Shown piece by piece: positions 10,908 through 64,000 of a DNA stretch of 64,000 bases. The notes beneath the pieces are model-generated. The model searched no databases and was not told where the DNA came from. It worked only from the letters and a program-made list of their open reading frames with translations. The translations under genes and the position numbers were made by a program. Each line of letters opens with the position of its first letter. Position 1 is the first letter of the stretch. The DNA is from Terriglobales bacterium (GTDB taxonomy: Bacteria; Acidobacteriota; Terriglobia; Terriglobales; Acidobacteriaceae). The stretch lies in the NCBI GenBank assembly GCA_016185365.1, contig JACPNP010000028.1, forward strand, positions 42,454-106,453, read 5' to 3'.

Positions 10908-13049
10908 ATGGCCCACGGTCCCACCAACGCTCTCGCCCTCGCGTCGTCTTCGTATCTACGCTCCGCCATGCATCAGCCCATCCAGTGGCATGAGTGGGGT
11001 GACGAGGCCTTTGCCACGGCGCAGCGGGAGAACAAGGCCATCCTGCTCGACATCGGCGCGGTCTGGTGCCACTGGTGCCACGTGATGGACCGCGAGTCGT
11101 ATGAGAACGCCGAGATCGCCGCCATCATCAATGAGAGCTTCATCGCCATCAAAGTCGACCGCGACGAGCGTCCCGACGTGGACAGCCGCTACCAGGCGGC
11201 GGTGCAGGCCATGAGCGGACAGGGCGGCTGGCCGCTCACCGCATTTTTGACGCCGGATGGCCGTCCGTTCTTCGGCGGCACCTACTTCCCGCCCGACGAT
11301 CGCTGGGGGCGTCCCGGCATGAAGCGCGTGCTCATGGGCATCGCCAATGCCTTTCGGGAAAAAAACGAGGAAGTGACCGAATCCGCCGACGCCGTGATGA
11401 ATGCCATCGCCCACCAGGAATCCTTCCGCGGTCACGCCGGAGAGATCACCGCCAAGGCCGTGGACCGCATCCTCGAATCCGCGCTGCGCCAGTTCGACCG
11501 CGAGTGGGGCGGCTTCGGCGGCCAGCCCAAATTTCCCCACGCGCCCACAGTCGATCTGGTGATCGATTATTACGTCCGAACGCGCAATCAGACGCTGTAC
11601 GACCTCGTTCACACCACCCTCACGCGCATGGCGCTGGGCGGCGTCTATGACCAGCTGGCCGGCGGCTTCCATCGCTATTCCGTGGACGCCAAGTGGATCG
11701 TTCCGCATTTCGAGAAGATGTCGTACGACAATTCCGAGTTGTTGAAGAATTACGTCCACGCGTACCAGGCCACGAGTGAGCCGATCTTCGCCGGCGTGGC
11801 CAAAGACATCATCCGCTGGGTGGACACTTGCCTCAGCGACCGTGAGCACGGCGGATTTTACGCCTCGCAGGACGCCGATTTCTCCCTCGACGACGACGGC
11901 GACTACTTCACCTGGACGCGCGCCGAGGCCCAAGCCGTTCTCAACGAGGACGAATTCCGTGTCGCCGCCGAGCACTATGACATCGGCGAAATAGGCGAGA
12001 TGCACCACGACCCGCACAAGAATGTATTGCATGTCGCCTGGGGCGTGGATGAGATCGCCAAGAAACAAGGTTTGTCGGCGCACGAGGTGGAACGCCTGCT
12101 GGCCTCCATGAAGGAAAAGATGCTGGCGGCGCGGCAAAAGCGCCCAACACCCTACATCGACAAGACCATCTATGTGAATTGGAACGCGCTGCTGGTCTCC
12201 GCGTACCTTGAAGCCGCCAGCGCGCTGCATCTTGAGGACGCGCGCCACTTCGCGCTGCGCTCGCTCGACCGCATCCTGGCCGAGGCCTGGGACCACACCT
12301 CCCACCGCCTGGACCATGTCATCCGGTATTCCGATCCCGCCGCCGCGCGGCGCACGCTCACCGGCATGCTGGACGACTATGCCTACACCGCCATCGCCTG
12401 CCTCGACGCCTACGAGGCCACCTCCGCGGTGAGCTATTTCAACTTTGCCCGCAACATCGTGGACGCGATGAGGAAACGCTTTTTTGACGAAGAAGCCGGC
12501 GGCTTCTTCGACCGCGATGCCATGGTCGATCCCGATTCCCTGGTCGGCGCATTGCAGACCAAGCGCAAGCCGCTGCAGGACACGCCCACCCCCGCCGGGA
12601 ACCCTTGCGCCACCATCGCGCTGCTGCGGCTCTTTCATTACACCCACGAAGCCAAGTATCGCGAGGCCGCCGCGGATACGCTTGAGTGTTTCGCCAACGT
12701 CGCCGACCACTTCGGCATCTATGCCGGCACCTATGGCATCGCGCTGCGCCTGTTCTTCACGCCGCACACGCAAGTGATCGTCCACGGTTCTGATGCGAAG
12801 GCGGACGCGCTCTTCGCCGCCGCCGTCGAGCCGTTCGCCATCACCAAGTCCGTGCTCCGCGTGCGCGACGGCCAGGCCGTGCCGGAGAATCTCCCGCCCG
12901 CGCTCGCCGCGACCATCCCCCAGGTCAAAGCCATTCAGGACGGCGAGTCCGTGGCCGTGATCTGCGCCGCCTTCACCTGCCAGCCGCCGATCAGCGATCC
13001 GGAGAAACTCCGGGAAGCGCTGCGGCAGTCTGTGCAGGTCAGCGGCTAG
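10908..13049 (+). CDS. Thioredoxin-domain protein of the YyaL/DUF255 (SSP411-like) family with a six-hairpin glycosidase-like C-terminal domain
   Basis: 713-aa ORF with IQWHEWGDEAFATAQRENKAILLDIGAVWCHWCHVMDRESYEN, the characteristic N-terminus of this family. Confidence 0.8.
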   Translation: MAHGPTNALALASSSYLRSAMHQPIQWHEWGDEAFATAQRENKAILLDIGAVWCHWCHVMDRESYENAEIAAIINESFIAIKVDRDERPDVDSRYQAAVQAMSGQGGWPLTAFLTPDGRPFFGGTYFPPDDRWGRPGMKRVLMGIANAFREKNEEVTESADAVMNAIAHQESFRGHAGEITAKAVDRILESALRQFDREWGGFGGQPKFPHAPTVDLVIDYYVRTRNQTLYDLVHTTLTRMALGGVYDQLAGGFHRYSVDAKWIVPHFEKMSYDNSELLKNYVHAYQATSEPIFAGVAKDIIRWVDTCLSDREHGGFYASQDADFSLDDDGDYFTWTRAEAQAVLNEDEFRVAAEHYDIGEIGEMHHDPHKNVLHVAWGVDEIAKKQGLSAHEVERLLASMKEKMLAARQKRPTPYIDKTIYVNWNALLVSAYLEAASALHLEDARHFALRSLDRILAEAWDHTSHRLDHVIRYSDPAAARRTLTGMLDDYAYTAIACLDAYEATSAVSYFNFARNIVDAMRKRFFDEEAGGFFDRDAMVDPDSLVGALQTKRKPLQDTPTPAGNPCATIALLRLFHYTHEAKYREAAADTLECFANVADHFGIYAGTYGIALRLFFTPHTQVIVHGSDAKADALFAAAVEPFAITKSVLRVRDGQAVPENLPPALAATIPQVKAIQDGESVAVICAAFTCQPPISDPEKLREALRQSVQVSG

Positions 13050-13112
13050 TCCCGCCGGCGTGTTTCTTTTCCGGTGCTGTGGCCGCGATCCATCTTGTAA
13101 AATCCAACTTCT

Positions 13113-15083
13113 ATGAGCACGGGAACCTCCATGGAATCGAAGGAAAAGTTTGCGCCTCCGGCGGAGTTCGCCGCCCAGGCCCATGTCCCCTCGTTCGCGG
13201 ACTATGAGCGCCTTTACGCCGCCGCGCTGGCGGACCCTGACAAATTCTGGGCCGAGCGCGCCGGCGACCTCCACTGGTTCCAGCGCTGGACGCAGGTGTG
13301 TGATTGGTCGAACGCGCCCTTCGCCAAGTGGTTCGTCGGCGGGAAGACCAACCTCAGTTACAACTGCCTCGACCGTCATCTCCCGACCGCGCGCCGCAAC
13401 AAGGCGGCCATCGTCTGGGAGGGTGAGAACTACGAGCAGCGCACGCTCACCTATCAGGAGCTGTATCGCAAGGTCTGTAAGTTTGCGAATGCGCTCAAGG
13501 GACTGGGACTCAAGTCCGGCGACCGCGCCATCATCTATATGCCCATGGTGCCGGAGGCAGCGGTCGCCATGCTGGCCTGCGCGCGGTTGGGTGTGACCCA
13601 CTCTGTCGTCTTCGGCGGATTCTCCGCTGAAGCGCTCAAGACCCGCATCCAGGACCTGGAAGCCTGCCTGGTCATCACCGCCGACGCCGGCCTGCGCCGC
13701 GGCAAGGAGGTCCTGCTGAAGCCTGCGGTGGATGAATCCCTGGCCGACTGCCCCACTGTCAAGAATGTCATCGTCTACAAACGCCTGGGCACGCTCACGC
13801 AGATGAAGTCCGGCCGCGACCACTGGTGGGACGACCTCACCACCGGCATCAGCGAAGAGTGCCCCGCCGAGCCGCTCGATAGCGAGCATCCCCTGTATGT
13901 GCTGTACACCTCCGGCACCACGGGCAAGCCAAAAGGCGTGGTCCACACCACCGGCGGATATCTCACCTACGTACTGGCCACCATGAAATGGGTCTTCGAC
14001 CTGAAGGAGGAGGACACCTACTGGTGCACGGCGGACATCGGCTGGGTCACCGGACACTCCTACGTGGTCTACGGCCCGCTGGCCGCCGGCGCCACCACCT
14101 TCATGTATGAGGGCGCGCCCGATTGGCCCAAGTGGGACCGCTTCTGGCGGCTGATCGAAAAATACCGCATCAGTGTCTTTTACACGTCACCCACCGCGAT
14201 CCGCGCCTTCATCCGCCAGGGCGATGACTTCCCCAACGGACACGATCTTTCGTCGCTGCGCCTGCTCGGATCGGTGGGTGAGCCGATCAACCCTACCGCG
14301 TGGAAGTGGTATCACACGACTATCGGCAAGGAACGCTGCCCCATCGTGGACACCTGGTGGCAGACCGAGACTGGCGGCATCCTCATCTCGCCGCTGCCCG
14401 GCGCCACGCCCACCAAGCCCGGTTCGGCCACGCGTCCGTTGCCCGGCATCGTCGCGGAAGTGGTGGACGATAAAGGCGAACCGGTCAAGATCGGCAAAGG
14501 CTTCCTCGTGCTCAGCCGGCCCTGGCCCTCCATGCTGCGCACGATCTACGGCAATCCGGAGCGCTTCAAAGCGGGATACTGGTCGCGCTTCCCCGGCAAA
14601 TACTTCACCGGTGACGCCGCCACCATTGACGAAGACGGCTACATCTGGTGCCTGGGCCGCGTGGATGACGTGATCAATGTCGCTGGACACCGACTCAGCA
14701 CCATGGAGGTGGAGTCGTCGCTGGTGCGCCACAAGTCCGTGGCCGAAGCCGCCGTAGTGGGCGCGCCGCATGAGATGAAGGGCGAGGCCATCTATTGTTT
14801 CGTCGCGCTCAAGACCGGCGTGAACGGCAGCGATGCGCTGGTCGACGAGCTGCGCGACTGGGTGGCGCATGAGATCGGCGCCCTGGCCAAGCCGGAGAAG
14901 ATCAACTTCGTCGCCGCCCTGCCCAAGACCCGCAGCGGCAAGATCATGCGCCGCCTGCTGCGCGAGATCGTGACCACCAAGTCCGTCGCCGGCGATACCT
15001 CGACGCTCGAAGACTACGGCGTGATCCTCAAGCTAAGCCAGGAAGGGAAAGAGGAAGAGGAGATTCTGGGGGAGAAGAAGTGA
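13113..15083 (+). CDS. acs: Acetyl-CoA synthetase (AMP-forming)
   Basis: 656-aa ORF with [12 protein letters not shown] (AMP-binding P-loop), [15 protein letters not shown] and the C-terminal [11 protein letters not shown] motif. The N-terminus has the typical Acs FWAERA...WF pattern. Confidence 0.95.
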
Positions 15084-23885: not shown

Positions 23886-23980
23886 TCCGCCCCCTTCGTC
23901 GTATTCACCGCTGGGTCTGGTTCGCTCTCGCGGTCATTCTGCCGGTGATCTTCATCGCGGCGCTGGTGGTGCGCTCATGA
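23882..23980 (+). CDS. Micro-ORF, 32-aa single-TM peptide (MIRPLRRIHRWVWFALAVILPVIFIAALVVRS)
   Basis: Below the ORF-track size cutoff. ATGA overlaps occur at both ends: with the 80-aa gene stop at 23883-23885 and with the next gene's ATG at 23977. It has a positive N-terminus followed by a TM helix. Confidence 0.5.
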   Translation: MIRPLRRIHRWVWFALAVILPVIFIAALVVRS

Positions 23981-25029
23981 GCGTGAGCTACCAGGCTGTC
24001 GGGTGGAACCGCCAGAAGAAGATCTATGATTTCGTGCTGGTAAGCGGGATCATCTGCTATTTGCTCGTGTTTGTAGCACTGGGCGGATACCGTCATCGCA
24101 ATGCCACGATCGAGACGCTCCTGATCCGCGGATTCGGCACGGCCGCATTGCTGCTTTTGCATATCGTACTTTGCATCGGGCCGCTCAGCCGGATCAACCG
24201 CAAGTTCCTTCCGCTGCTTTACAACCGGCGCCATCTCGGCGTAGCGACTTTCATTCTGGGACTGGCGCACGGCACGTTTGCGCTCATCCAGTTCCACAGC
24301 CAGGGCGAATTGAATCCGCTGGTCTCGTTGTTCGTCAGCAACACCCGGTTCGACAGTCTCTCGCAGTTCCCTTTCCAGCCGCTTGGCTTCTTCGCCCTCA
24401 TCATCCTGTTTCTCATGGCCGGCACCAGCCATGACTTCTGGTTGCACAACCTCTCACCGGTCATTTGGAAGCGGCTGCATATGCTGGTGTACGTGGCATA
24501 CGCGCTTCTGATCGCACACGTCAGCCTTGGAGTTCTTCAAGCGGAAACGAGCCCGGTCCTCGCGACTGTGTTGGGACTCGGACTCGCTATCGTCATCCTG
24601 CTGCATTTGGCCGCAGCCGTGCTTGAGCATCCGGCGGACCGGGATAAAGTCTCCGCCCGCGAAGATGGTTTCGTTGAGGTAGGCGAAGCAGCCAGCATTC
24701 CGGAGAACCGAGCGCGTGTCGTTTGCCTCTCCGGGGAGCGTGTCGCGGTCTTCCGCTACGGTGACAAGATCTCCGCCGTCTCCAACGTCTGCCGGCACCA
24801 GAACGGTCCGCTGGGCGAAGGAAAGATCATTGACGGCTGCATCACGTGTCCGTGGCACGGCTATCAATATCTGCCCGACAGCGGTACGTCGCCGCCGCCA
24901 TTCACCGAAAAGGTCGAGACCTATGCTGTGCGAGTCGAAGGCGGCAAAGTGTTCGTGCATCCGCGGGCAAATCCGCCGGGCACGCGCGTGGAGCCGGCCC
25001 GTATCCCCGTCGGGGAGGCCGTATCATGA
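23977..25029 (+). CDS. Fusion protein: ferric-reductase-like (FRD/YedZ-type, di-haem) transmembrane domain + C-terminal Rieske [2Fe-2S] domain
   Basis: 350-aa ORF with six TM segments and His pairs (RRHLGVATFILGLAHG and RLHMLVYVAYALLIAHV). The C-terminal CRHQNGPL...CPWHGYQY is a Rieske CxH...CxxH motif. Confidence 0.75.
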   Translation: MSVSYQAVGWNRQKKIYDFVLVSGIICYLLVFVALGGYRHRNATIETLLIRGFGTAALLLLHIVLCIGPLSRINRKFLPLLYNRRHLGVATFILGLAHGTFALIQFHSQGELNPLVSLFVSNTRFDSLSQFPFQPLGFFALIILFLMAGTSHDFWLHNLSPVIWKRLHMLVYVAYALLIAHVSLGVLQAETSPVLATVLGLGLAIVILLHLAAAVLEHPADRDKVSAREDGFVEVGEAASIPENRARVVCLSGERVAVFRYGDKISAVSNVCRHQNGPLGEGKIIDGCITCPWHGYQYLPDSGTSPPPFTEKVETYAVRVEGGKVFVHPRANPPGTRVEPARIPVGEAVS

Positions 25030-29448: not shown

Positions 29449-30540
29449 CTACTTGCTCACAGCCGTCTCCGCATACCCTTCCGCCTTCAGCGCCATCGGC
29501 TTGGTGAAGATCGCGGCAAAATTGCGGGCCTTGCGGTTCTTCCACGTGCCTTTGTGATAGACGTACCCGGCGATGATGGGCAGAGTTGTCGTCAATTCGC
29601 CGAACACCATCTGCTCCATGGCGGTATCCACCTTGCCCCAGGAGTTGGCTTCCTTCAGCGTGGAACCGCTGAGGGCGCCGTCGCGTTCGTCGGCCACGGT
29701 GAGCTGCACGGCATACTTGTGCATCTCCACCTCATAACCCAGGAACTCGGCGCTGACCACGATGTCCTGCACAAAGTTCTTGGGGACGCCGCCGCCCAGC
29801 ATGAGCAGTCCGGTCACGCCCTGCTCGACCTTGATGGCGGTCAATTCGCGGAAATCGGCCACGCTGTCGATGGTGACGTATGGCCGGCCCGCGTTCATCG
29901 CTGCCACTTGATGGAACACCAGGCCGAACCCGGCCGAGCAGTCACTGAACGCCGGGCAGAAGATGGGCACGCCTTTGCGGTAGCACTCCAGTACGATGCT
30001 CTCTGCCTTCGGATGGTTCTTCTCCAGGTACTTGCCCATCTCATGGATGAACTCGCGGCTGGAGTACGCGCGCGCGCCGTTGGGCCGCGCCGCCAGTTCC
30101 TCGGCGATCTTATGCACAGTCTCATCGCAGAGGCGAAGCTCGTCCTCGTCGATGTAGGTGTCATAGATGCGGTCCACGTGGGCCTCGCGCAGGTCGTTGT
30201 CATTCACGAACTGCGTGCCCTGATAGTGCTTGAAGCCCAGGGCCTCGAAGAAGTCCTGGTCCACGATGTTGGCGCCGGTGGAGACGATGGCGTCCACCAT
30301 GTTGCAGCGCACCATGTCCAGGATCACGCCCTTCTGCCCGGCGGAGATCAGGCTGCCGGCCAGGGTCAGGATCACGCCGCAATCGGCGTCAGCCACCATG
30401 GTGTCCACGTATTTCGCGGCGGTGGCCAGGTTGCGCGCCTGGAAGGCGGTCCGTTCCATCATCTCCACCATGGGGATGACGTTGACCTTCTTGATGTCGT
30501 AATGCTCGACGGTGGTTTTGAGCAGGTTGTTCTTGTTCAT
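29449..30540 (-). CDS. Deoxyhypusine synthase family protein (bacterial DHS-like / homospermidine-synthase-like)
   Basis: MNKNNLLKTTVEHYDIKK...LAGSLISAG...STGANIVDQDFFEALG...GGGVPKNF. A GGAG lies 6 nt upstream of the ATG at 30540; the track start 30552 is an upstream in-frame ATG. Confidence 0.8.
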   Translation of the reverse strand: MNKNNLLKTTVEHYDIKKVNVIPMVEMMERTAFQARNLATAAKYVDTMVADADCGVILTLAGSLISAGQKGVILDMVRCNMVDAIVSTGANIVDQDFFEALGFKHYQGTQFVNDNDLREAHVDRIYDTYIDEDELRLCDETVHKIAEELAARPNGARAYSSREFIHEMGKYLEKNHPKAESIVLECYRKGVPIFCPAFSDCSAGFGLVFHQVAAMNAGRPYVTIDSVADFRELTAIKVEQGVTGLLMLGGGVPKNFVQDIVVSAEFLGYEVEMHKYAVQLTVADERDGALSGSTLKEANSWGKVDTAMEQMVFGELTTTLPIIAGYVYHKGTWKNRKARNFAAIFTKPMALKAEGYAETAVSK

Positions 30541-30661
30541 GTCGCACTCCAATTTCTTTATTGTGAGGGCTCCGCGCCAGGGGCGCTGCGCCCTCGCGTC
30601 CTAATCGGGCGGTACAGCCCGAACCGGACGCTCACCCTAGGATTGGGTCCCGGAGCGCCCT

Positions 30662-30689
30662 AAAAGGAAAAAGCCCCGGGGTCTCGGGG
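30662..30689 (-). terminator. Intrinsic terminator-like hairpin + U-tract inside the long region upstream of the DHS-like gene
   Basis: The minus strand reads GACCCCGAGACCCCGGGGCTTTTTCCTTTT. This is a CCCCG/CGGGG stem with a 6-nt loop followed by a T-rich run. Confidence 0.55.
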
Positions 30690-30918
30690 TCTACGGTAAG
30701 CAGACATTGTGTCCGCTCCCGCCATCGAACCCCGCCGTGGCTGAGTACTAATTTTACCCCAAATTACCGACAACCGAAATAAGGACAGCCTAGACGACAC
30801 AGGTGCATTCGTGGCGCCGAACGAGCATAGAACACTACCACTTAGCTTATCCGGGAAGATTAGTATGCGATCACAATACTTCATATTTGAGTTGTCACAA
30901 ATTACCCTACTATCGAGA

Positions 30919-31128
30919 CTAATTCCCGTATTCAATCTCCTCAATGTTGACCCAGCGCGTTTTCCTGCATCCCGGCTGCGGACATTGAACGAGTAATCGT
31001 CTCGGTGTTCGCCGAATTATAATGCCGGGCTTGTTCAAGAAAATACGCCTACCGCATGCTTTGCAACTTACCGTCTGATTTTCCGTGTTATTGACATTCT
31101 TCTCCGTCATACGAAAATGATGCACCAT
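30919..31128 (-). CDS. Small zinc-ribbon-like protein (69 aa), hypothetical
   Basis: Two Cys pairs are present (SCKACGRR ... VQCPQPGCRK). It lies in a roughly 40-45% GC islet. There is no other support. Confidence 0.35.
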   Translation of the reverse strand: MVHHFRMTEKNVNNTENQTVSCKACGRRIFLNKPGIIIRRTPRRLLVQCPQPGCRKTRWVNIEEIEYGN

Positions 31129-31225
31129 GAAAACCAGGATCGCAACGAGTTGGTATAACTATACGCAATGTTGTCAACACGCGCTGAGACAATGATCCGT
31201 TAAACCAACTTTGAACTTTTCGACT

Positions 31226-31594
31226 CTACTTCGTCAAAATCGCCAGTTTCTTTGCCAGTTCTTTCGCGGAAGCATTGAGCGCGCCCTTCCCGCTCCATCG
31301 GCCTGCGCGAACTACAGAGGCGACGAACTTTCCCTTCCGGTCAACCACTACCACCGCGGCCGAAGCACCGGATAGCGACGTTTCTTGAGCAATCAGCACA
31401 TTGTAGTCATACTCCTCGTCCAATTGAGCAGTCTTCCACACCAATCCATGTTGCGGAAAGACTTCCTTGCAACTGGCTACAAAGTCCGCGAGTCGACTCG
31501 AATCTCCTTGCACGACAATCCTGACTGTCCGATCAGGTGAAGCAAACGCACTCGATAGAAGGATGAGGGTGCACAGAACAAGAATTCTTTTCAT
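31226..31594 (-). CDS. Secreted hypothetical protein (122 aa)
   Basis: Signal peptide MKRILVLCTLILLSSAFA. It lies in the low-GC islet. I recognise no family. Confidence 0.5.
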   Translation of the reverse strand: MKRILVLCTLILLSSAFASPDRTVRIVVQGDSSRLADFVASCKEVFPQHGLVWKTAQLDEEYDYNVLIAQETSLSGASAAVVVVDRKGKFVASVVRAGRWSGKGALNASAKELAKKLAILTK

Positions 31595-31614
31595 CGAGAC
31601 ACCTCTTGATCTAG

Positions 31615-31692
31615 CTATTCATAATTGATCCCGTTATTCAAATCTCCATGTAACAACCGGTGGAACAACTGTTCGCCCGCTTCGCGCCGCAC
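31615..31692 (-). pseudogene. Orphan duplicate of the 3' end of the Rieske oxygenase gene
   Basis: 31634-31692 matches 32402-32460 at 53 of 59 nt and encodes VRREAGEQLFHRLLHGDLN followed by a different tail (NGINYE*). The two copies flank the IS200-like element. Confidence 0.7.
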
Positions 31693-31745
31693 GCCGGGCC
31701 TGCCACCCGGATGTTCTCCTGCAATCAACCACCGTGACAAACATT

Positions 31746-32372
31746 CAGGCCCGCAGGGCCGCAAGGTCAATAGCCCAGGCCGGAAGGCCTGGGTGCGGTG
31801 CAAGGAAAACAGTGAGCCCCGCCAGGGGCGACAGACCTAATCAAACACGTATTTCAGGTTGTATTCCACACCATGTTTGTCCAACAATGCGATGAATTCA
31901 TCTTCGAACGTCCGTCTGCGATGATGTTGTTCCTGAGTCTCAATGTATCGGCAAACGGCTGACACATTCGATGCGCTCACCGTGAACGCTCCGTATCCTT
32001 CCTGCCATCCGAACCGCCGGTCTTCTTCGCGCATCCACTTCGACGAATTGGCTTTCAAGATGTTGATCGCTTTTGCCGGGGCAAGGTCCGACGGCAACGA
32101 AGCCAGGATGTGGATGTGGTCAGCCATCCCGCCGATGGCATAGCATTTCATCTTGTGATTGCGCGCGATGGCGCTCAAATATTGATATAAGCGCTGCTGT
32201 TTCTCAGGTCGAATCAGCTTGATCCGTTGCCTTGTGCTCCAAACCAGATGGAAATAGCTACTGATGAACGAATGCGCCATGCTCTGTCGCCCCTCCGGGG
32301 CTCACGGAATTGTGGGCATTCTAACCCAGGCCTTCCGGCCTGGGCTATTGACCTTACGGCCCTGCGGGCCTG
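31746..32372. mobile_element. IS200/IS605-like Y1 transposase unit bounded by long imperfect inverted repeats
   Basis: 31746-31794 (CAGGCCCGCAGGGCCGCAAGGTCAATAGCCCAGGCCGGAAGGCCTGGGT) is the reverse complement of 32324-32372. Inner arms at 31812-31834 and 32284-32305 are also complementary. Each arm contains its own hairpin, CCCAGGCC-GGAA-GGCCTGGG. Confidence 0.8.
31837..32280 (-). CDS. tnpA: IS200/IS605-family Y1 (HUH) transposase TnpA / RAYT-like
   Basis: 147-aa ORF with YHLVWSTRQR, the HUH motif in ADHIHILASLP, and the catalytic Tyr block WQEGYGAFTVS. Confidence 0.85.
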   Translation of the reverse strand: MAHSFISSYFHLVWSTRQRIKLIRPEKQQRLYQYLSAIARNHKMKCYAIGGMADHIHILASLPSDLAPAKAINILKANSSKWMREEDRRFGWQEGYGAFTVSASNVSAVCRYIETQEQHHRRRTFEDEFIALLDKHGVEYNLKYVFD

Positions 32373-52413: not shown

Positions 52414-52566
52414 AGGGCCGCTAACCATTTTCTCCGGGACTGGTCTAAGTCTGTGAGCCGAATATGAAAGACAGGGAGGCGCGCCGCGAGGCGCCGTGCG
52501 CCAGCCAGACTTGACCCGTTGAGCCGGGAATCGGCTTCGCTATACTGGAGACTGCACCCTCCAGCC

Positions 52567-53031
52567 ATGGGCCTGATCGTTCGTACATCTGATATACACG
52601 CCATCGGCGTTTTCACGACGACAGGCATTCCCGTGGGCGCCCGGATCGTCGAATACACCGGTCCGCGCATTTCCGAAGACGACGCCGGATCCCGATATTC
52701 CGAGCGCGACGAGACCTATCTCTTCGGTCTGACCAACAGCCCCACCGTCATTGACGGCACCGGCGTGGCCGCTTTCATCAATCACAGTTGCGCCGCGAAT
52801 TGCGAAGCGGATGAGGTCGACGAGCAGGTGTGGATCATCGCCCTGCGCGCGATCCGCGCCGGAGAAGAACTGACCTACGATTACAACCTCTATGACGGGG
52901 ATGAGAGTGACCTGGCGCCGTGCTACTGCGGCGCGCCCGGGTGCCGGGGCACGATGTATGGCGAAGACGAACTCATCCGGCGCAGGAAGGCTTCCAAGCC
53001 CAACGACCCACAAACGGTCAGCGTTCGCTGA
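52567..53031 (+). CDS. SET-domain protein (putative lysine N-methyltransferase) with post-SET Cys cluster
   Basis: The ATG at 52567 gives GVFTTTGIPVGARIVEYTG, FINHSCAANC, ELTYDY and CYCGAPGCRG. The track start 52519 is a TTG. Confidence 0.8.
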   Translation: MGLIVRTSDIHAIGVFTTTGIPVGARIVEYTGPRISEDDAGSRYSERDETYLFGLTNSPTVIDGTGVAAFINHSCAANCEADEVDEQVWIIALRAIRAGEELTYDYNLYDGDESDLAPCYCGAPGCRGTMYGEDELIRRRKASKPNDPQTVSVR

Positions 53032-56001: not shown

Positions 56002-57933
56002 ATGACAACGCGCAACAGCCGCATCACCACTCCGCTGGTCAGGGAGAACGGCCGGCTTCGTCCCGCGACCTGGGACGAAGCGCTAGACCGTGCCGCGCAG
56101 GGGTTCCGCACCGCCGTGGAAAAACACGGTCCGCGGACCTTCGGCATGTTCAGCTGCTCGAAGACGACCAACGAGATGAACTACCTGGCGCAGAAGTTCG
56201 CCCGGGCGGTGATCGGCAGCAACAATATCGATAGTTGCAACCGCACTTGACACGCTCCCAGCGTCGTCGGTCTGGCGACGGTCTTTGGAGCAGGCGGTGG
56301 CACCAGCTCGTATCGTGAGATCGAAGATACGGATTTGATCGTCCTCTGGGGCAGCAATGCCCGGGCGGCGCATCCCATCTTCTTCCACCACGTGCTGAAA
56401 GGGATCCGCAATGGGGCGAAGCTCTATGTGGTGGACCCTCGCAGGACGGAGTCTGCCCAGTGGGGAGAGAAATGGCTGGGCTTGCATGTGGGCACGGACA
56501 TCGCGCTCTCCCACGCCATCGCCCGGGAAATCATCGCCAATGGCCTGGAGAACAGAAGTTTCATCGAGAATGCGACTAGCGGCTTCGAGGAGTACCAGGC
56601 CTACGTCGAGCCATTCACCCTGGAGTACGCGGAGAAAGAGTGCGGTGTTGCCCGGGAGCTGGTCCGCGAGCTGGCGCATGCCTACGCGCGCGCCGATCGC
56701 GCCCAGATCTGCTGGACCCTGGGAATCACCGAACACCATAACGGCGTGGACAATGTGCTATCGCTGATCAACCTGGGCCTCTTGACCGGCCATGTTGGGC
56801 GATACGGCTCGGGGCTGAATCCCCTGCGTGGGCAGAACAACGTGCAGGGCGGGGGCGACATGGGCGCCATCCCCGACCGGCTGACCGGGTTTCAACACGT
56901 GGAGAATGACGAGCTTCGCGCCAAGTTCGAAAAGGCCTACGGCGTGAAGATCCCCGCCCAGCGCGGCTGGCACTTGAGCGGGATGTTCGATGCGATGGAA
57001 CATGGCGAGTTGACAGCTCTATATGTGATCGGCGAGAACCCGGCCAACTCGGAATCGGACCAGCACCGCTGTATGAAACTGCTGAAGGGGCTCGAGTGCC
57101 TGGTCGTACAGGACATGCTGCTCACCCAGACTGCCGAACTCGCCACCGTGGTCTTTCCTGCCGCCGCAGGCTGGGTCGAGTCTGAAGGCACTGTGACCAA
57201 CAGCGAGCGTCGGGTGCAGCGCGTGCGCCGCGCCAAGAATCCGCCCGAGGGTGTGCGCGATGACATGACCATCCTTTGCGATCTGGCCGATCGCCTCGGC
57301 CACAGCCTGGGACATCCCTCCGCTGAAGAGTTGTGGAATGAATTACGCACCTTGAGTCCAATGCATGCCGGCATGAGTTACGAACGGTTGGAGAAGTCCG
57401 GCGGGCTGCAATGGCCGTGCTATGACGAAACCCATCCCGGCGAACAATATTTGCACGCCCGGTTGTGGGAGCGTCCGATCATCGGGCCGCTGGCGCCGTT
57501 CAGTCCGGTGCAGCATGATCCACCGGTGGATCTACTGGACAAGGACTTCCCTATCCGGCTGACGACTGGACGACGGCTTGATTCCTATAACACCGGCGTC
57601 CAGACCATGCACTATGCTTCTCCTCTGCGCTGGGGCGAGACGCTTGATCTCTCACCGGAAGACCTTCAGCGCATGGGTCTGAACGAAGGTGACATGGTCC
57701 GGATCGTCTCCCGCAGGGGCGCGGTCGAGGCGCCAGTGCGCGTGGACCCCGGCTTGAAGCCAGGGTTGGCGTTCATGACGCTTCATTTCCCCGATCAAGT
57801 GGCTACGAATGAGCTCACCATTGACGCCATCGATCCGAAATCCGGCGTGTCCGAATTCAAAGCCACCGCCATCCGCGTGGAAAAGGTGAGCATGAAAAAG
57901 AAGCAGGAAGCGGAGGCCGCGGTCTCCAACTAG
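56002..57933 (+). CDS. fdhA: Formate dehydrogenase catalytic (bis-MGD) polypeptide with in-frame UGA = selenocysteine; lacks all N-terminal Fe-S domains
   Basis: Track ORFs 55969..56250 and 56335..57933 are in the same frame and are joined through TGA at 56248-56250. The context [27 protein letters not shown] aligns with E. coli FdhF [27 protein letters not shown]. The N-terminus RITTPLVRENGRLRPATWDEAL corresponds to the FdhF segment just after its Fe4S4 domain. Confidence 0.85.
56248..56290 (+). promoter_or_regulatory. UGA(Sec) codon plus SECIS-like stem-loop
   Basis: UGA is followed by an 11-nt spacer, then the stem CGUCGUC (56262-56268), loop GGUCU, and stem GGCGACG (56274-56280). An outer helix GCUCC (56254-56258)/GGAGC (56286-56290) is also possible. 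Confidence 0.7.
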
Positions 57934-57949
57934 GGCCAACTGACCACGC

Positions 57950-59740
57950 ATGGACCTCCACTTCACGACAGCCGAGGCGACTGCGGAAGAAAGAGCCGCC
58001 GTGGACGCTTGCCTGGCCACTGTGTCGCTGAACGGATCCCGCCGTCAATTCCTTCTTCCGGTCTTGCACGCCATCCAGGACCGCGTGGGTTGGATCAGCG
58101 AAGGCGCATTGAATCACGCATGTCAGCAACTTCACGTCGCGCCGGCAGAGGCCTATGGTGTGGCTGATTTCTATGCGCTGTTTGCCACCCGCCCCCGGCC
58201 GAAGACCGTCGTTCACATCTGTGACGACATCGCCTGCCAAGTCCGAGGCGCGGAAACACTCTGCCGGCAGATGGAAAAAGAGTTCGGGCCTGCCGGGTCG
58301 AGCAAGGATGGTTCCGCGACCTGGCATCGCAGCCCGTGTCTTGGCGTGTGCGAACGCGCCCCAGCCGCGCTGGCGATCACAGCCGGAGAGAAAACGAGCG
58401 AACACGTGATTGCGCCGGCGACCGCGCCGGACGTCAGATCCGCGCTTCGAGGCGCGACGATCAAGCAACCGGCCCTTGCTATCTCAGTTCCGCAAGCCGG
58501 CCAATCAGGACTGCGACTGTTGAAGCGGATCGGCACGGTCGACCCCACAAGTCTGGACGCCTACCGGGCCAGTGGCGGCTTCCTCGCGCTGCGCCGGGCC
58601 CTGGAGATGGGCGCGCTCGAGGTCATCCGTGAGGTCACGGAATCCAAGCTGGTCGGCCGCGGCGGGGCCGCCTTTCCCACCGGCATGAAGTGGAGCGGCG
58701 TGCGCAGCGCGCCTCTGCCCCGCTATCTGATCTGCAATGCCGACGAATCCGAGCCGGGTACGTTCAAAGACCGCGTGATCATGGAAGGCGACCCGTACGC
58801 ATTGGTCGAATCCATGATCATCTGTGCTTACGCCACCGAGTGCTCGCACGGCTACTTGTATATTCGCGGCGAATATCCACTGGCCACGAGCCGACTGGAA
58901 CACGTCTTGCAACAGTGCCGCAACCGCGGATTCCTGGGCAAGAACATACTGGGCAGCGGGTTCGACTTCGACATCGAGCTACGCCGGGGCGCGGGGGCCT
59001 ACATCTGCGGCGAAGAAACGGCGCTGATGAACTCCATCGAAGGCCATCGTGGCGAGCCGCGCAATAAGCCGCCTTTCCCAACGCAAGTCGGTCTCTTCGG
59101 CAAGCCGACAGTCATCAACAACGTCGAGACGCTGGTCAACCTTCCGCAGATCCTCATCGAAGGCGGCAAAGCGTTCGCCACCATCGGCACCGAGAAATCG
59201 ACCGGGCCGAAGTTGTTTTGCGTCTCCGGCCACGTCAACACGCCCGGGGTGTACGAGGCGCCATTCGGGATCACGTTGCGGCAGTTGCTGGACTTGGCCG
59301 GCGGTATCGGCGGCACCGGAAAAGCGCAGGCCATTCTTCTGGGAGGCGCGGCCGGCGCATTCGTCGGCCCGAAGGACATGGATGTGCCGCTTACGTTTGA
59401 AGGGTTGCGCGCCATCGGCGCGACGCTCGGATCCGCCGTGATCATGCCGTTCGACGATTCCGTCGACCTCAAACAAATATTGCGGCGCATCGCCGGCTTC
59501 TTCCGCGACGAATCCTGTGGTCAGTGTGTGCCTTGCCGGGTGGGAACGGTGCGCCAAGAGGAGCTGCTTGCTCGTATGGCCTCCGGTAAGACGATCGGCG
59601 GGATGAAGCAGGAGCTGGTCCTGCTCAAGGAAGTGGGCCAGGTCATGCGGGACGCTTCTATCTGCGGCCTGGGCCAGACCGCCTCCAGCGCCATCGAATC
59701 GGCATTAGCGAAATTCCCTATCTTCGAGGAGAAGCGATGA
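57950..59740 (+). CDS. NAD(H)-binding diaphorase subunit: NuoE-like [2Fe-2S] domain fused to NuoF-like FMN/NADH/[4Fe-4S] domain (FDH beta/gamma fusion)
   Basis: 596-aa ORF. The N-terminus has CDDIAC...CLGVCERAP (NuoE-type cluster). It is followed by GRGGAAFPTGMKW, ICNADESEPGTFKDR and ESCGQCVPCR (NuoF motifs). Confidence 0.85.
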   Translation: MDLHFTTAEATAEERAAVDACLATVSLNGSRRQFLLPVLHAIQDRVGWISEGALNHACQQLHVAPAEAYGVADFYALFATRPRPKTVVHICDDIACQVRGAETLCRQMEKEFGPAGSSKDGSATWHRSPCLGVCERAPAALAITAGEKTSEHVIAPATAPDVRSALRGATIKQPALAISVPQAGQSGLRLLKRIGTVDPTSLDAYRASGGFLALRRALEMGALEVIREVTESKLVGRGGAAFPTGMKWSGVRSAPLPRYLICNADESEPGTFKDRVIMEGDPYALVESMIICAYATECSHGYLYIRGEYPLATSRLEHVLQQCRNRGFLGKNILGSGFDFDIELRRGAGAYICGEETALMNSIEGHRGEPRNKPPFPTQVGLFGKPTVINNVETLVNLPQILIEGGKAFATIGTEKSTGPKLFCVSGHVNTPGVYEAPFGITLRQLLDLAGGIGGTGKAQAILLGGAAGAFVGPKDMDVPLTFEGLRAIGATLGSAVIMPFDDSVDLKQILRRIAGFFRDESCGQCVPCRVGTVRQEELLARMASGKTIGGMKQELVLLKEVGQVMRDASICGLGQTASSAIESALAKFPIFEEKR

Positions 59741-60723
59741 GCACGCCGCCCAAGGCGCCGGACATGAAGATCCCGATCCCGCGTGGCCCGCTGCCCATCT
59801 TCCCTCCGGAACGGCCCAAGCGGCTGGTGGAGATCACCATCGACGGCAAGCCGGCTTCAGTCCCGGAAGGCTCCACATTGCTCGAAGCGGCGCGCACAGT
59901 GGGTATTGAGACGCCCACCCTTTGTTATCTCGAGAATCTCACTCCTGTGAATGTGTGCCGAATATGCGTGGTCGAGTTGGAGAACTCCCGGACATTGGTT
60001 CCGGCTTGTTCGCGCAAGGTCGAACCGGGGATGAAGGTGCAAACGGATTCTGAGCGTGTGCGCACCAGCCGCAAGCTCGTCCTCGAGCTACTGGCTTCCT
60101 CGGTCGATGTTTCCACCGCGCCGCAGTTCAAGGAGTACATGCAGCGGTATGACGCTGCGCCGGAGCGCTTTGGCCCGACGGGAAGTCCGGCGAAGGCGGG
60201 GGAACGCGATCAGATCCAGCCGGGCCACCATCATGCCGCAGATGGCGTGCACGCGGAAACCGTGGCCCAACCGGTGAAGGTGGACAATGATCTGTATGTG
60301 CGCGACTACGGCAAATGCATCCTCTGCTATAAGTGCGTGGAGGCCTGCGGCGTGGACGCGCAGAACACATTTGCCATCGCAGTCGCCGGACGCGGGTTCA
60401 ACGCCCGCATCTCCACCGAGTTCAATGTGACCCTGCCCGACTCCGCGTGCGTCTATTGCGGGAACTGCATCGGCGTGTGTCCCACCGGCGCGTTGATGTT
60501 CAAGAGCGAGCATGACATGCGCCAAGCCGGCACATGGGACGAGAAAAAGCAGTCGCAAACGGACACGATCTGCCCATATTGCGGCGTCGGCTGCCAGCTC
60601 ACGGTGCACGTTCAGGAGCAGCAGATCGTGAAGATCACTTCCCCGCTCGATCACAGCGTGACCAACGGACACCTCTGCATCAAAGGGCGGTTCGGATATG
60701 AATGGGTGAACCTGAAGAAGTAG
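59737..60723 (+). CDS. Fe-S subunit equal to the N-terminal part of an FDH alpha/NuoG-like protein: [2Fe-2S] + 4Fe-4S ferredoxin domains + Molybdop_Fe4S4 domain, ending where the MGD domain should begin
   Basis: 328-aa ORF with an ATGA overlap with the upstream gene. It has ITIDGKPASVPEGSTLLEAA..PTLCY..NVCRICVVE, CILCYKCVEAC, CVYCGNCIGVCP and finally ICPYCGVGCQLTV...GHLCIKGRFGYEW, followed by a stop. Confidence 0.85.
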   Translation: MSTPPKAPDMKIPIPRGPLPIFPPERPKRLVEITIDGKPASVPEGSTLLEAARTVGIETPTLCYLENLTPVNVCRICVVELENSRTLVPACSRKVEPGMKVQTDSERVRTSRKLVLELLASSVDVSTAPQFKEYMQRYDAAPERFGPTGSPAKAGERDQIQPGHHHAADGVHAETVAQPVKVDNDLYVRDYGKCILCYKCVEACGVDAQNTFAIAVAGRGFNARISTEFNVTLPDSACVYCGNCIGVCPTGALMFKSEHDMRQAGTWDEKKQSQTDTICPYCGVGCQLTVHVQEQQIVKITSPLDHSVTNGHLCIKGRFGYEWVNLKK

Positions 60724-60729
60724 CCGCCG

Positions 60730-60927
60730 CTATTTCTTGCTTGCTTCCAGCAGCAGCATCAGCCGCACCAGCCCGGCAAAGACCACCACGCCCGCCAGAC
60801 TCAGGGCAATGAAGATCCAATCGTGATTGTTGATGCCGCTCAATCCGACGGCGAACGACAGCGCCAGCACCAGCAGGCAGACAGGCACTAGCACCACTTG
60901 CATCAGGCCGCCCGTGAATCGGGTCAT
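60730..60927 (-). CDS. Small two-TM membrane protein (65 aa), hypothetical
   Basis: The ORF has two hydrophobic helices (VVLVPVCLLVLALSFAVGL and IFIALSLAGVVVFAGLV). There is no other support. Confidence 0.4.
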   Translation of the reverse strand: MTRFTGGLMQVVLVPVCLLVLALSFAVGLSGINNHDWIFIALSLAGVVVFAGLVRLMLLLEASKK

Positions 60928-61047: not shown

Positions 61048-64000
61048 CTATTTCTTTCCTAAGGACGAATGAGCTGCTGTCCTTGATCTTCCGGCATTCT
61101 GTACTGATTCTTTCCTCGGCGCGAATAACTCAGGATGCAAGTACGTGCCCTGCTCGGCCGGAGGTTTGGTCTCTTCGACACGGATGCGATTCGCATCCGC
61201 GTAGGCGTCGTGCCGGATTCCCGTCACTTGCCATGAGACCCTTGCATTCGGGCGTCCTCCGGCGATCTGGAAACGGTTGTGCGCCACTTCTCTTGCCACG
61301 TATAGATTTGGCGCGGGCCGTCCTAGCGCGGTCAATTGATAGCGGAAGTCACGATTGAGCGCCTCGAACCACTCCGGCAGGTCGATCCAGGCGCGTCCCT
61401 TTGCATCCAGCGTGACCACGCCGTTGTAGATGTTCATCATGTCCGGCGATTCCACGAACGAGTGGTACAGATACTTGCGCGCCGGATCGAGCGGGTGGTC
61501 GATCTTGAACGAACCCGCACCTTTGGAAAGGGTGCCGCCGACCGAAAGACTGCCCGCGAAGAAACTGGTTGCCGCTCCGCTCACCTGGATCGGGGTCTGA
61601 GAGGTCAAAGTCTGTACCTGCAACCCGCCGGCAAATGTGCTTTGCGTCCCTCCCGACACTGTAAGAGTATTCATCGTGACATCACCCTGACTATCCACCT
61701 TGAATTTTTCCTGACCCGCCGAAGTGGCGTGGATGAGGTTTCCGGTCCCGAAGAACTCGACCTCCAACCCCGTCCCGCCATTGCCGACGAAGCTGTACAG
61801 GCCGGTCGCGGTGGTCCCGTTCACCTCGCCTCTCACGCCGATGCCGCTGACCGCGCCGGATTCCCCCTTCACTCCTATGCCGCCTCCCGCATCGCTCGAA
61901 TCCACTGCTCCTTTGACCCCTATCCCATCCGGGCTCCTGGTCGAGCCTTTAACGCCGAACGCAGTCCCCGTGCTCGCATGGGCTTCGCCGGAGACTCCAA
62001 TGCCGGCCGGATTGTCAACGATCCCGAGTACGCCTTGCGCATCACCACCGTTCAAATTGCCGGTGGCCCCGTTCCATCCGACCACACCGGGTGCATTGGG
62101 AGTACTGGTGAACCCCGCCACTCCCACCGCCGTGTTCGCCGTTGCTGTCGCGATTCCGACCACTCCGGCCGGGATCGATGTCTGCGCAAAGGCGAATGTT
62201 GGGTCCGACAGGAGCAACACAGAATTGTTCTGCGTTCCGCTGATGATCGCACTCGCCGTGCTCCCGGCAAGATTCAAGGGCACGCTGATACCCCCGCCGG
62301 TGGTCGCATCGGTCGAACAACCCCAGGCAGCCCCTGTCCACTTCGGGATCTCATTCAAATTGCAGGAGGGTATACCTGTCAGTTGTGTCGTCGCATCCGG
62401 GAACTTGAATCCACCCGTACTCGAGCGGACAATGCCCGAAACATCTAAGGTCGTGGACGGGGTCAAAGTCCCGATCCCGACCCGTCCCGTCGCGTTGTCC
62501 ACCACCATCCGGGCCGTACCGTTCTGAGCGATCGAGCCGGTGCCAAAGAGCAACCGGGAGGCATTCGTGGCCAGGATCACGTCTCCTGCCGATGAACCCG
62601 CCACATAATTCCCGGCCACGCCTGCGATCGCCAGGATGCCTTCGTCCGCCGTCCGCCCGATGACATAGCTGGTGTTGTTGCTGGCGCCGCCGGAACGCAG
62701 CCGGACACCGAACCCTGTAGCGTCGTTCACTGTCAGCCGAGTGCTGGGTGCGTTCGTGCCGATACCGACATTGCCGGTGGCATCGATCCGCATCCTCTCC
62801 ACGTTGTTGGTGCCCAGGATGAACGGCGCGCTGATCACCGTCCCCATCCCCGTCGTCGCCCCGCCCTGCAGATACGCCGCGCCCACTCCCATCCCGAAGG
62901 GCGCCGCGATCGCCGAGCCCGAGATGCCGAACTGCGCTGTCCCGGTCGTGTCGTTCTGGATCAGGATGTCCGTATAACCCGCGCTGCTGTTGTTCCGCAT
63001 CTTCATCCGGATGGCCCCGGCCGCTGCCGCTGTCCCATTCAGGTGCAGCAGCGCCGTCGGCGCATTGATGCCGATGCCGATGTTGCCGCCGGCATCGATC
63101 CGCATCCGCTCCAGGTTGTTCGTCCCCAGGATGAAGGGCGCGCTGATCACCGTGCCCATCCCTGTGGTCGCCCCGCCCTGTAGATAGGCGGCGCCCACTC
63201 CCATGCCGAACGCGCTGTTGGTGGTCGAGCCCGAGATGCCGAACTGCGCGTAGAGCCCCGTGTTGTTCTGGAACAGCATGTCCGTGTAGCCACCCGCGTT
63301 GGTGTTCTGCATGCGCAAGCGGAGCGCCCCGAAACTCCCGATGCTGTCGGTGATATGCAGCTTGCTTCCCGGCGATGTCGTGCCGATGCCGATGTTGGTC
63401 CCGTTATCGAACAGCAGCGAATCGCCGATGTTGGTCGCGCTGGTCCACTTGGTCACCCGGTTGACCGTCCCATTGACTCCGCCGTTATCCACGGCGACCG
63501 CCGGGTCGGGAGTCCGGCCGGCCGCTTGCACTTCCGCCGATCTCGTCTTCGCCCCGCCGCCCTGCAATGGCGACAACCGTAACTGATAGTCGCTGGCCGG
63601 ACGTCCACCCAGGGTCTCCGCATCCGCCGCCTTCAGCGCATAGGGCACGCTTACCAGCATCACACGGGGTTGCTGCCCGCCTTTTCCATCCGCGCTCTGC
63701 ACCTCCAGCCAGCGCGCATCCCCGCTGGCGAACAGCTCCGCCGGCAGCCCGGCATCCGACGCCGCGCCCAGCAGTACGCTATAGCGTCCTTGCTCATCGG
63801 CACGAACGGTCTGCGATTCCGACCAAAGGGCCGCGGTTGAATCCTGGGCGTCATAGATCCGCAGGTTCACCACCACGTCCCCGCTCAGCGCTTGGCCCGC
63901 AACGTCCCGCAGAGTGCCACTGAAGCGCACCACCCGCGGTACGCCCGCCGCCGGCTTGCCAACGGCCACGGTGGAATCCTCCGGTGTGTCCTGCACAGGT
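61048..64000 (-). CDS. Very large repetitive surface/tail-fibre-like protein; N-terminus runs off the window
   Basis: 982+ aa. The frame is open to the window edge, so the GTG at 63996 is probably internal. The motif xVGIGTxxPxxxLxV recurs at least four times. The body is Gly/Thr/Ala/Ser-rich. A distinct roughly 150-aa C-terminal domain reads SFKIDHPLDPARKYLYHSFVESPDMMNIYNG...RVSWQVTGIRHD. Confidence 0.7.
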   Translation of the reverse strand, partial: PVQDTPEDSTVAVGKPAAGVPRVVRFSGTLRDVAGQALSGDVVVNLRIYDAQDSTAALWSESQTVRADEQGRYSVLLGAASDAGLPAELFASGDARWLEVQSADGKGGQQPRVMLVSVPYALKAADAETLGGRPASDYQLRLSPLQGGGAKTRSAEVQAAGRTPDPAVAVDNGGVNGTVNRVTKWTSATNIGDSLLFDNGTNIGIGTTSPGSKLHITDSIGSFGALRLRMQNTNAGGYTDMLFQNNTGLYAQFGISGSTTNSAFGMGVGAAYLQGGATTGMGTVISAPFILGTNNLERMRIDAGGNIGIGINAPTALLHLNGTAAAAGAIRMKMRNNSSAGYTDILIQNDTTGTAQFGISGSAIAAPFGMGVGAAYLQGGATTGMGTVISAPFILGTNNVERMRIDATGNVGIGTNAPSTRLTVNDATGFGVRLRSGGASNNTSYVIGRTADEGILAIAGVAGNYVAGSSAGDVILATNASRLLFGTGSIAQNGTARMVVDNATGRVGIGTLTPSTTLDVSGIVRSSTGGFKFPDATTQLTGIPSCNLNEIPKWTGAAWGCSTDATTGGGISVPLNLAGSTASAIISGTQNNSVLLLSDPTFAFAQTSIPAGVVGIATATANTAVGVAGFTSTPNAPGVVGWNGATGNLNGGDAQGVLGIVDNPAGIGVSGEAHASTGTAFGVKGSTRSPDGIGVKGAVDSSDAGGGIGVKGESGAVSGIGVRGEVNGTTATGLYSFVGNGGTGLEVEFFGTGNLIHATSAGQEKFKVDSQGDVTMNTLTVSGGTQSTFAGGLQVQTLTSQTPIQVSGAATSFFAGSLSVGGTLSKGAGSFKIDHPLDPARKYLYHSFVESPDMMNIYNGVVTLDAKGRAWIDLPEWFEALNRDFRYQLTALGRPAPNLYVAREVAHNRFQIAGGRPNARVSWQVTGIRHDAYADANRIRVEETKPPAEQGTYLHPELFAPRKESVQNAGRSRTAAHSSLGKK
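62743..63327. repeat. Intragenic tandem duplication (period 312 bp = 104 aa) inside the giant repeat protein
   Basis: The protein block FGMGVGAAYLQGGATTGMGTVISAPFILGTNN(L/V)ERMRIDA occurs twice, at aa 263-302 and 367-406 of the ORF. The DNA copies are near-identical around 62790-62940 and 63100-63250. Confidence 0.85.

Follow-up and report, generated by a model that had tools for sequence, protein, structure and literature searches.

The window analysed here is a 64,000-nucleotide stretch from a metagenome-assembled genome (MAG) of Terriglobales (Acidobacteriota; records MBI2682741 and MBI2682742). On its forward strand, three consecutive genes very probably form a functional operon for a cytoplasmic, NAD(H)-linked formate dehydrogenase (FDH) with selenocysteine (Sec) and molybdenum or tungsten (Mo/W) at its active site, whose alpha subunit, judging from sequence comparisons, was split once, anciently, with its halves encoded in permuted order. 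The cut would lie precisely where the FS0 [4Fe-4S] segment meets the pterin-binding body, and the gene order would have become alpha-C, NuoE::NuoF, alpha-N.

Gene 1 (56002..57933) is assigned from Pfam, TIGR01591 and PDB matches to the FDH catalytic polypeptide, which would bind the Mo/W-bis-pyranopterin cofactor (molybdopterin guanine dinucleotide, MGD). It is followed by gene 2 (57950..59740), a NuoE::NuoF fusion of 596 residues that represents the diaphorase module, and by gene 3 (59737..60723), a NuoG/HoxU-like Fe-S polypeptide of 328 residues. The gap between genes 1 and 2 is 16 nt, and the stop of gene 2 overlaps the start of gene 3 in the sequence ATGA. Promoter and terminator scans around the operon gave nothing better than shuffled sequence. 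A sequence-only reading of this DNA had described the same three open reading frames (ORFs), with these coordinates and in this order on the forward strand, as a catalytic gene without Fe4S4 domain, a NuoE::NuoF fusion and an Fe-S gene ending in Molybdop_Fe4S4; our searches recovered the same ORFs, and Pfam agrees with all three assignments. The Sec codon and its hairpin, the loss of a His-ligated cluster and the breadth of the family had been overlooked in that reading.

Two complementary halves of an alpha subunit

With its in-frame UGA read through, gene 1 translates into 643 residues with Sec at residue 83, and corresponds to the C-terminal ~640 residues of a canonical alpha subunit without the FS0 domain. 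Pfam detects Molybdopterin (PF00384, residues 7-431, E 1.5e-62) and Molydop_binding (PF01568, residues 519-622, E 2.8e-26); the same scan found no Molybdop_Fe4S4 domain, which leaves the MGD chain without an Fe-S cluster of its own. The best family model is TIGR01591 (Fdh-alpha), at 644.2 bits versus 403 for NasC and 364 for NasA. The translation also contains the active-site motifs, Sec-His and the Arg in NPLRGQNNVQG. Gene 1 matches residues 60-693 of E. coli FdhH (1aa6_A), and this alignment start bears out the earlier proposal that the gene begins where the Fe4S4 domain of FdhF ends.

Gene 3, identified by Pfam and by its match to 6tg9_A, corresponds to the N-terminal ~300 residues of a canonical NAD-linked FDH alpha subunit. 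It contains Fer2_4 at residues 29-105, a ferredoxin domain for two [4Fe-4S] clusters at 193-252 and, at its C-terminal end, the FS0 domain (Molybdop_Fe4S4, PF04879, 60559..60711, E 2.2e-19, profile positions 4-54 of 55). This last domain covers residues 275-325 of 328, and the protein ends three residues later at a TAG stop (60721-60723). The [2Fe-2S] ligands are C63, C74, C77 and C91; the two ferredoxin-type [4Fe-4S] clusters are ligated by C194/197/200/204 and C238/241/244/248, and FS0 by C279, C282, C286 and C314, with Lys316 lying within CIKGRFG. All 16 cluster-ligating cysteines are invariant in the protein alignment of relatives, and Lys316 is invariant in 36 close relatives, with Arg in P0127. 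Conserved N-terminal residues back the start codon that gives 328 residues.

One cluster of related alpha subunits is missing from gene 3. No match to PF10588 was found, and no Cys stands opposite H117, C121, C124 or C130 of FdsA, which indicates the loss of the His-ligated [4Fe-4S] cluster. The His-x3-C-x2-C-x5-C cluster is likewise lost in the nearest fused relatives.

The region that replaces it holds a His-rich segment, GERDxxxPGHHH (60184-60240, gene 3 residues ~150-168). The window and 12 of the 45 split-clade Fe-S proteins checked have its PGHH part; the others, all those of Streptomyces among them, show a deletion at this place. Within the close Acidobacterial relatives, Pro162, Gly163, His164 and His165 do not vary.

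The two alpha halves are complementary to the residue. On the 672 positions of TIGR01591, residues 277-326 of gene 3 cover positions 1-50 and residues 3-626 of gene 1 cover 49-672. On the Rhodobacter capsulatus alpha subunit FdsA (6tg9_A), residues 22-323 of gene 3 align with 16-302 and residues 3-627 of gene 1 with 304-932. Both coverages uphold the suggestion of the sequence-only reading that gene 3 joined to gene 1 would recreate a canonical alpha subunit. The FS0 motif CxxCxxxC...C-x-K is carried by gene 3 (residues 279-316) and not by gene 1, so FdhA is not present here as a single polypeptide.

Gene 2, assigned from Pfam, NCBIfam and PDB matches, combines on one chain the 2Fe-2S_thioredx domain of NuoE with the Complex1_51K, SLBB and NADH_4Fe-4S domains of NuoF. 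The N-terminal NuoE-type thioredoxin-like [2Fe-2S] domain is encoded at ~58037-58372 on the forward strand, and the part with the flavin mononucleotide (FMN)/NAD(H) site, SLBB and the N3-type [4Fe-4S] domain at ~58634-59719 on the same strand. NCBIfam returned nuoF_fam at 472 bits in addition to NuoE/FdsG matches. The PDB matches are FDH beta subunits (6vw7_B, 7e5z_B and 6tg9_B) and also NuoF/HydB. The Pfam scan found no additional ferredoxin domains on gene 2.

A predicted selenocysteine codon with a covarying hairpin

The in-frame TGA of gene 1 lies at 56248..56250 (forward strand) in the context CNRT-TGA-HAPSV, which is the Sec/Cys-His active-site motif of formate dehydrogenases; Sec would here be the active-site ligand. 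The gene caller breaks gene 1 at this codon into pieces of 82 and 532 codons, and gene 1 of locus L001 is similarly called as pieces of 71 and 543 residues. Among the split-clade sequences that cover the site (the window and 37 of the listed loci described below), TGA is found in 30 of 38 and a Cys codon, TGC or TGT, in 8 of 38. The loci with a Cys codon belong to Streptomyces, Nonomuraea, Herbidospora and Sphaerisporangium.

Just 3' of the UGA, the Rfam model SECIS_3, the minimum free energy fold and covariation indicate a bacterial selenocysteine insertion sequence (SECIS) hairpin at 56254..56291 (forward strand). The lower stem pairs 56254-56258 with 56287-56291, the upper stem pairs 56262-56268 with 56274-56280, and the apical loop is GGUCU (56269-56273). 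We aligned the 60 nt surrounding the codon in 51 loci with a UGA, split and fused. Next to the loop, six pairs of the upper stem (56263-56268 with 56274-56279) can form in 51 of 51, and one pair alternates between C-G, G-C, U-A and A-U, with 17 double (compensatory) changes. Of the five apical-loop positions, three never vary and the other two are conserved to at least 90%. The covariation score was reached by none of 500 shuffles, and slid registers scored far lower. We take the TGA to be a selenocysteine codon and no disruption of the gene, because Cys occupies its place in orthologues and the SECIS stem covaries.

Conservation of the split layout among relatives

When gene 3 was searched against 5.8 billion proteins, the best 120 clusters held proteins of ~320-350 residues except for P0005 (392 residues), all with the same domain set. 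Cluster identity, where reported, was 75-88% (100% for the window's own entry), and the named clusters were from Acidobacteriota. Two matches checked on their contigs show the order MGD, NuoEF, Fe-S in neighbourhoods that are otherwise unrelated. In a search of a representative library, fused relatives were at most ~42% identical; its matches were mostly metagenomic fragments and frameshifted sequences, from which no clear distribution of lengths emerged.

A scan of one genome per GTDB species yielded at least 80 loci, and the counts given in this text are among the matches listed. Loci were classed by tblastn with the three window proteins and by tracing the reading frame at the junction. The loci are bimodal, with an Fe-S identity of at least 54% in a split clade (48 loci, including two found through the protein clusters) and at most 44% in a fused clade (34 loci). 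The Fe-S ORF ends 0-26 codons after KGRFGxxxV in 48 of 48 split-clade loci, whereas in 34 of 34 fused-clade loci it runs through GRFGxDF(I/V)xxP(D/E)RLxxPL into the pterin body. In the fused loci the NuoEF gene, where present, usually lies upstream of alpha.

MGD, NuoEF and Fe-S genes lie on one strand, in this order, in 39 of the 41 split loci that could be judged; 7 further loci are cut by a contig end. A comparison with related operons, which the sequence-only reading had named as one check, thus finds both the split and the order conserved. Its central claim, that alpha is divided at the FS0/MGD boundary and encoded with the C-terminal half first, holds for the window and recurs in these relatives.

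By their record labels, the split-clade loci come from at least seven phyla: Acidobacteriota, Chloroflexota, Planctomycetota, Actinomycetota, Gemmatimonadota, Verrucomicrobiota and Armatimonadota. One listed split locus is from a MAG labelled 'delta proteobacterium'. Cultured members include Streptomyces scabiei ATCC 49173, Herbidospora cretacea NBRC 15474 and Nonomuraea sp., and the split layout is also present in chromosome-level MAG assemblies. The Streptomyces MGD protein belongs to a 90%-identity cluster of 2251 sequences; in S. scabiei it has 641 residues, with Cys as the active-site ligand.

A complete split FDH operon of bacterial type, 66-68% identical to the window proteins, was also found on a contig labelled 'Candidatus Micrarchaeaceae archaeon' (L018). 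Binning contamination is more likely here than an FDH of a DPANN archaeon.

The FDH-specific sulfurtransferase gene fdhD is linked to the operon in a number of relatives. It directly follows the Fe-S gene in Streptomyces scabiei (PF02634, E 1e-68), as in Streptomyces-type loci, and an FdhD homologue is present in 21 of the 48 split-clade loci. In L011, such a homologue is encoded shortly after the Fe-S gene, on the other strand (8681-9475).

Two ways of rejoining the halves were considered and rejected. A split intein or trans-splicing does not fit the junction tails, which measure only 0-26 and ~6-10 residues and vary in sequence. Stop-codon read-through or a frameshift joining gene 3 to gene 1 again does not fit the gene order, as gene 1 lies ~3.7 kb upstream of gene 3.

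Origin of the split and selection on the genes

Neighbour-joining trees of MGD, NuoEF, Fe-S and their concatenation each recovered the bipartition between split and fused loci in 100 of 100 bootstraps. The fused loci closest to the split clade are L046, L050, L052, L056, L057 and L079, from Anaerolineae and 'delta proteobacterium' MAGs. Their gene order is NuoE::NuoF and then the fused alpha, and, like the split clade, they lack the His-ligated cluster and have the replacement segment ASVDLSxAPE.

This pattern fits a single event of fission plus permutation in an ancestor with a NuoEF-alpha operon, as reconstructed from the sequences. Two routes are possible. A tandem duplication of the NuoEF-alpha unit could have been followed by loss of the outer parts, or alpha could have undergone fission with subsequent translocation of the MGD gene. 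A split but collinear intermediate was not seen among the listed loci. An origin by duplication and reciprocal deletion, as proposed in the sequence-only reading, is compatible with the NuoEF-then-alpha order of the nearest fused relatives, yet unproven.

In one of these fused relatives, the Anaerolineales MAG locus L052, ~1.5 kb separates the ferredoxin part of alpha from the FS0 segment (~7633-9100). Possible explanations are an insertion, an additional domain and a fault in the assembly.

Pairwise ratios of nonsynonymous to synonymous substitution rates (dN/dS) between the window and four relatives are 0.08-0.22 for all three genes, with dS near saturation. The three appear to be working genes, because dN/dS is low and the 16 cysteines of gene 3 are invariant.

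Proposed electron path

Physical assembly, electron path, NAD specificity and physiological direction are inferred here by analogy with characterised enzymes. The gene 1 product would oxidise formate at its Sec-Mo/W centre, and the electrons would cross an intermolecular interface to FS0 at the C-terminal end of the gene 3 product. From there they would pass through the two ferredoxin-type [4Fe-4S] clusters of gene 3 to its [2Fe-2S] cluster, and then through the N3-type [4Fe-4S] cluster and FMN of gene 2, where NAD+ would be reduced; the reverse reaction may also be possible. The NuoE-type [2Fe-2S] cluster would be off-pathway, as in complex I.

FdhH residues 1-60 are said to form part of a composite domain I. 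If so, the cut crosses a structural domain, and the interface between the two chains should be intimate.

The proposed path corresponds to that of the R. capsulatus enzyme (RcFDH), which leads from bis-MGD through A1 (FS0), A2, A3 and the [2Fe-2S] cluster A5 to the [4Fe-4S] cluster of FdsB and FMN (PMC7171172). The His-ligated cluster A4 of RcFDH is off-pathway and lies at the dimer interface (PMC7171172). By this analogy, the absence of A4 should leave the electron chain intact. It would also imply that the enzyme is likely a simple heterotrimer, with no A4-mediated electron transfer between protomers.

We also considered a more speculative version of this enzyme, which we hold to be doubtful: the catalytic body might be a detachable subunit that docks reversibly, through the FS0-pterin interface, on an NADH-linked platform of NuoEF and Fe-S proteins. 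The loci L010 and L011, discussed below, have the platform genes and no adjacent catalytic gene, which is a hint of such modularity. If it were true, the modules could mature separately, and a catalytic unit damaged by oxidation could be renewed, or the unit could be exchanged. Such an assembly logic would be undescribed for enzymes of the dimethyl sulfoxide reductase family, and might explain the success of the enzyme in aerobic soil phyla.

Contrary evidence and alternative explanations

Several observations weigh against the main explanation, a functional three-gene FDH operon. Gene 1 alone scores 644.2 bits, under the curated equivalog cut-off of 666.25 bits for TIGR01591; this is because profile positions 1-48 are missing from it, and gene 3 supplies them (52 bits). 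The Rfam SECIS_3 match (56245-56303) reaches 18.7 bits (E 0.13), versus a gathering score of 63 bits. In the 64-kb window, fdhD was not found, and a domain scan of 20 ORFs found no sel genes; a tRNA scan of the window returned tRNA-Asn only. AlphaFold2 on the gene 3 chain alone gave an unusable model (mean predicted local distance difference test, pLDDT, 51; predicted template modelling score, pTM, 0.43) from a 36-sequence alignment whose homologues, all at least 75% identical, were too shallow a sample.

In two split-clade loci, the catalytic gene is also missing from its usual place. L010 (3666-6427) and L011 (5133-7900), from Planctomycetota and Chloroflexi MAGs, encode NuoEF and the Fe-S protein, but their 3.6-5 kb of upstream DNA lacks an MGD gene and holds large ORFs that resemble surface proteins. 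The catalytic gene of these loci must be elsewhere in the genome or absent, and it follows that this gene need not adjoin the other two.

The same two loci speak for a different reading, in which the operon would encode two enzymes: a HoxFU-like NADH diaphorase with a vestigial, N7-like FS0, and an FS0-less molybdoenzyme with another redox partner. Extra DNA of 0.8-2.4 kb between MGD and NuoEF in L005, L008 and L049 (some Chloroflexota/Limnocylindrales) points the same way; in L049 the insert (2667-3773) holds a gene of the Na/Ca-exchanger family. We nevertheless consider two enzymes improbable. The boundaries of the halves complement each other to the residue, the FS0 cysteines are invariant and so, in the 36 close relatives, is Lys316. 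The synteny of 39 of 41 loci and the identical bipartition of three gene trees also argue against this reading, and the MGD chain has no Fe-S cluster with which to export electrons.

A split molybdoenzyme with another substrate or acceptor, such as a NasC-like NADH nitrate reductase or a ferredoxin/NAD bifurcating FDH, is in our view very improbable. The NasC and NasA models do match gene 1, but Fdh-alpha is far ahead of both at 644 bits. The best PDB matches of the NuoF domain include the bifurcating subunits HydB and NfnB; HydB-type subunits carry additional ferredoxin domains, whereas Pfam sees none on gene 2. The linkage of fdhD in relatives also argues for formate, and the Sec/Cys-His motif with the active-site Arg is of FDH type (PMC7171172).

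Finally, misassembly, or the decay of a formerly fused alpha gene into a pair of pseudogenes, the two ways in which the sequence-only reading had thought it might be wrong, could account for the in-frame TGA of gene 1 and for a window taken from a MAG, but has a negligible probability given that 39 independent listed loci show the same split, stop and order (with cultured-isolate genomes and chromosome-level MAGs among them), that dN/dS is low in all three genes, and that the TGA is a conserved Sec codon with a covarying SECIS, replaced by Cys in Streptomyces.

Comparison with known systems

The closest characterised counterparts are the FdsABG(D) enzymes of Rhodobacter capsulatus and Cupriavidus necator (6TG9/6TGA and 6VW7). 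Except for A4, the cofactor chain is the same, the domain order is the same once the halves are joined, and both systems have a NuoF-like FMN/NAD module and a NuoE-like [2Fe-2S] module. They differ in that alpha is one chain in FdsABG and two chains in the window, cut between FS0 and the pterin body with the C-terminal half first, and in that FdsG and FdsB are separate whereas NuoE and NuoF are fused in the window. A4, which sits at the RcFDH dimer interface, is absent from the window enzyme, and the active-site ligand is Cys386 in RcFDH but Sec in the window. Neither fdsC nor fdsD is part of the window operon.

The tungsten FDH1 (Fdh1AB) of Methylobacterium extorquens (7E5Z, 7VW6) is also a two-module NAD-linked FDH, with a beta subunit of 572 residues. 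Fdh1B is reportedly a NuoE::NuoF fusion as well; our alignment covered its NuoF part (gene 2 residues 201-594 to 7e5z_B 189-565, E 7e-101). The alpha subunit of FDH1 is a single chain of 989-995 residues including FS0, whereas that of the window is split, and FDH1 uses Cys and is not known to contain Sec. E. coli FdhH (FdhF; 1AA6/1FDO) resembles gene 1 in its Sec-His site followed by an fdhF-type SECIS, in the Arg of RGQNNVQG and in a catalytic body that runs from residue 60. It differs in having FS0 (residues 1-60) on the catalytic chain, where the window has it on a separate one.

Formylmethanofuran dehydrogenase FwdB/FwdD (FmdB/FmdD) offers a precedent for an FDH-type pterin protein on two polypeptides. 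Its split lies at the other end of the protein, with domain IV separate; FS0 stays on the catalytic chain, and the gene order is not known to be permuted. The Methanothermobacter wolfeii enzyme has an additional subunit that replaces the C-terminus of FdsA (PMC7171172). NuoE, NuoF and NuoG of complex I contain the same modules, with clusters N1a, FMN, N3, N1b and ferredoxin-type [4Fe-4S], and NuoG has a Molybdop_Fe4S4 domain (N7). The pterin-like body of NuoG is dead and fused, in contrast to the window, where the body is predicted to be a live Sec enzyme on a separate chain. To our knowledge, wherever other FDH-type and related molybdoenzymes possess FS0, it shares a chain with the pterin cofactor.

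No description of an FDH with a split alpha was found in the full-text literature searched, which omits most subscription journals, nor in the ForCE paper. The split FDH is real, ancient, widespread and apparently undescribed, with chemistry as expected. In public records its parts bear generic names, namely 'molybdopterin oxidoreductase family protein', '(2Fe-2S)-binding protein' and 'NAD(P)H-dependent oxidoreductase subunit E'. Because of these names, of a gene 1 score under the FdhA cut-off and of gene calls broken at the Sec codon, the enzyme may be under-counted when formate oxidation and selenoproteins are surveyed in soil Acidobacteriota, Chloroflexota and Actinomycetota.

The family would also provide a natural system for studying how electron transfer between FS0 and pterin, and also cofactor insertion, can cope with an interface between two chains, and might serve as a template for modular CO2-reducing FDH designs. 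The Cys-type version of Streptomyces is genetically tractable.

Genomic context and other features of the window

The operon is preceded by reading frames that we take, by eye from their translations, to be dnaX, ybaB and recR. It is followed by a convergent small ORF and then by a large repeat protein. None of the 20 other window ORFs scanned could be tied to formate or selenium metabolism.

The small ORF (60727-60927, reverse strand, ~66 codons) is, by eye, hydrophobic with two likely membrane helices and GGAGGA ahead of it; a sigma-70-like hexamer pair was noted at 60997-60969. Two very large ORFs on the reverse strand, 61048-63996 (982 residues) and 10959-14057 (1033 residues), have no Pfam match at E<=1e-5. 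The 982-residue protein is rich in Gly, Thr and Ala and has obvious internal repeats.

Two copies of the Acido-Lenti-1 RNA (RF01687) were found at 31747-31793 (reverse strand) and 32325-32371 (forward strand), with 39.5 and 38.8 bits, both above the gathering score. They lie ~530 nt apart on opposite strands, beside the stretch of lowest GC content (30001-32000; 0.54 versus ~0.61), and are consistent with an Acidobacteriota origin of the window. Elsewhere on the forward strand, 23977-25029 encodes a ferric-reductase-like transmembrane domain fused to a Rieske [2Fe-2S] domain, and 52519-53031 encodes a stand-alone bacterial SET-domain protein.

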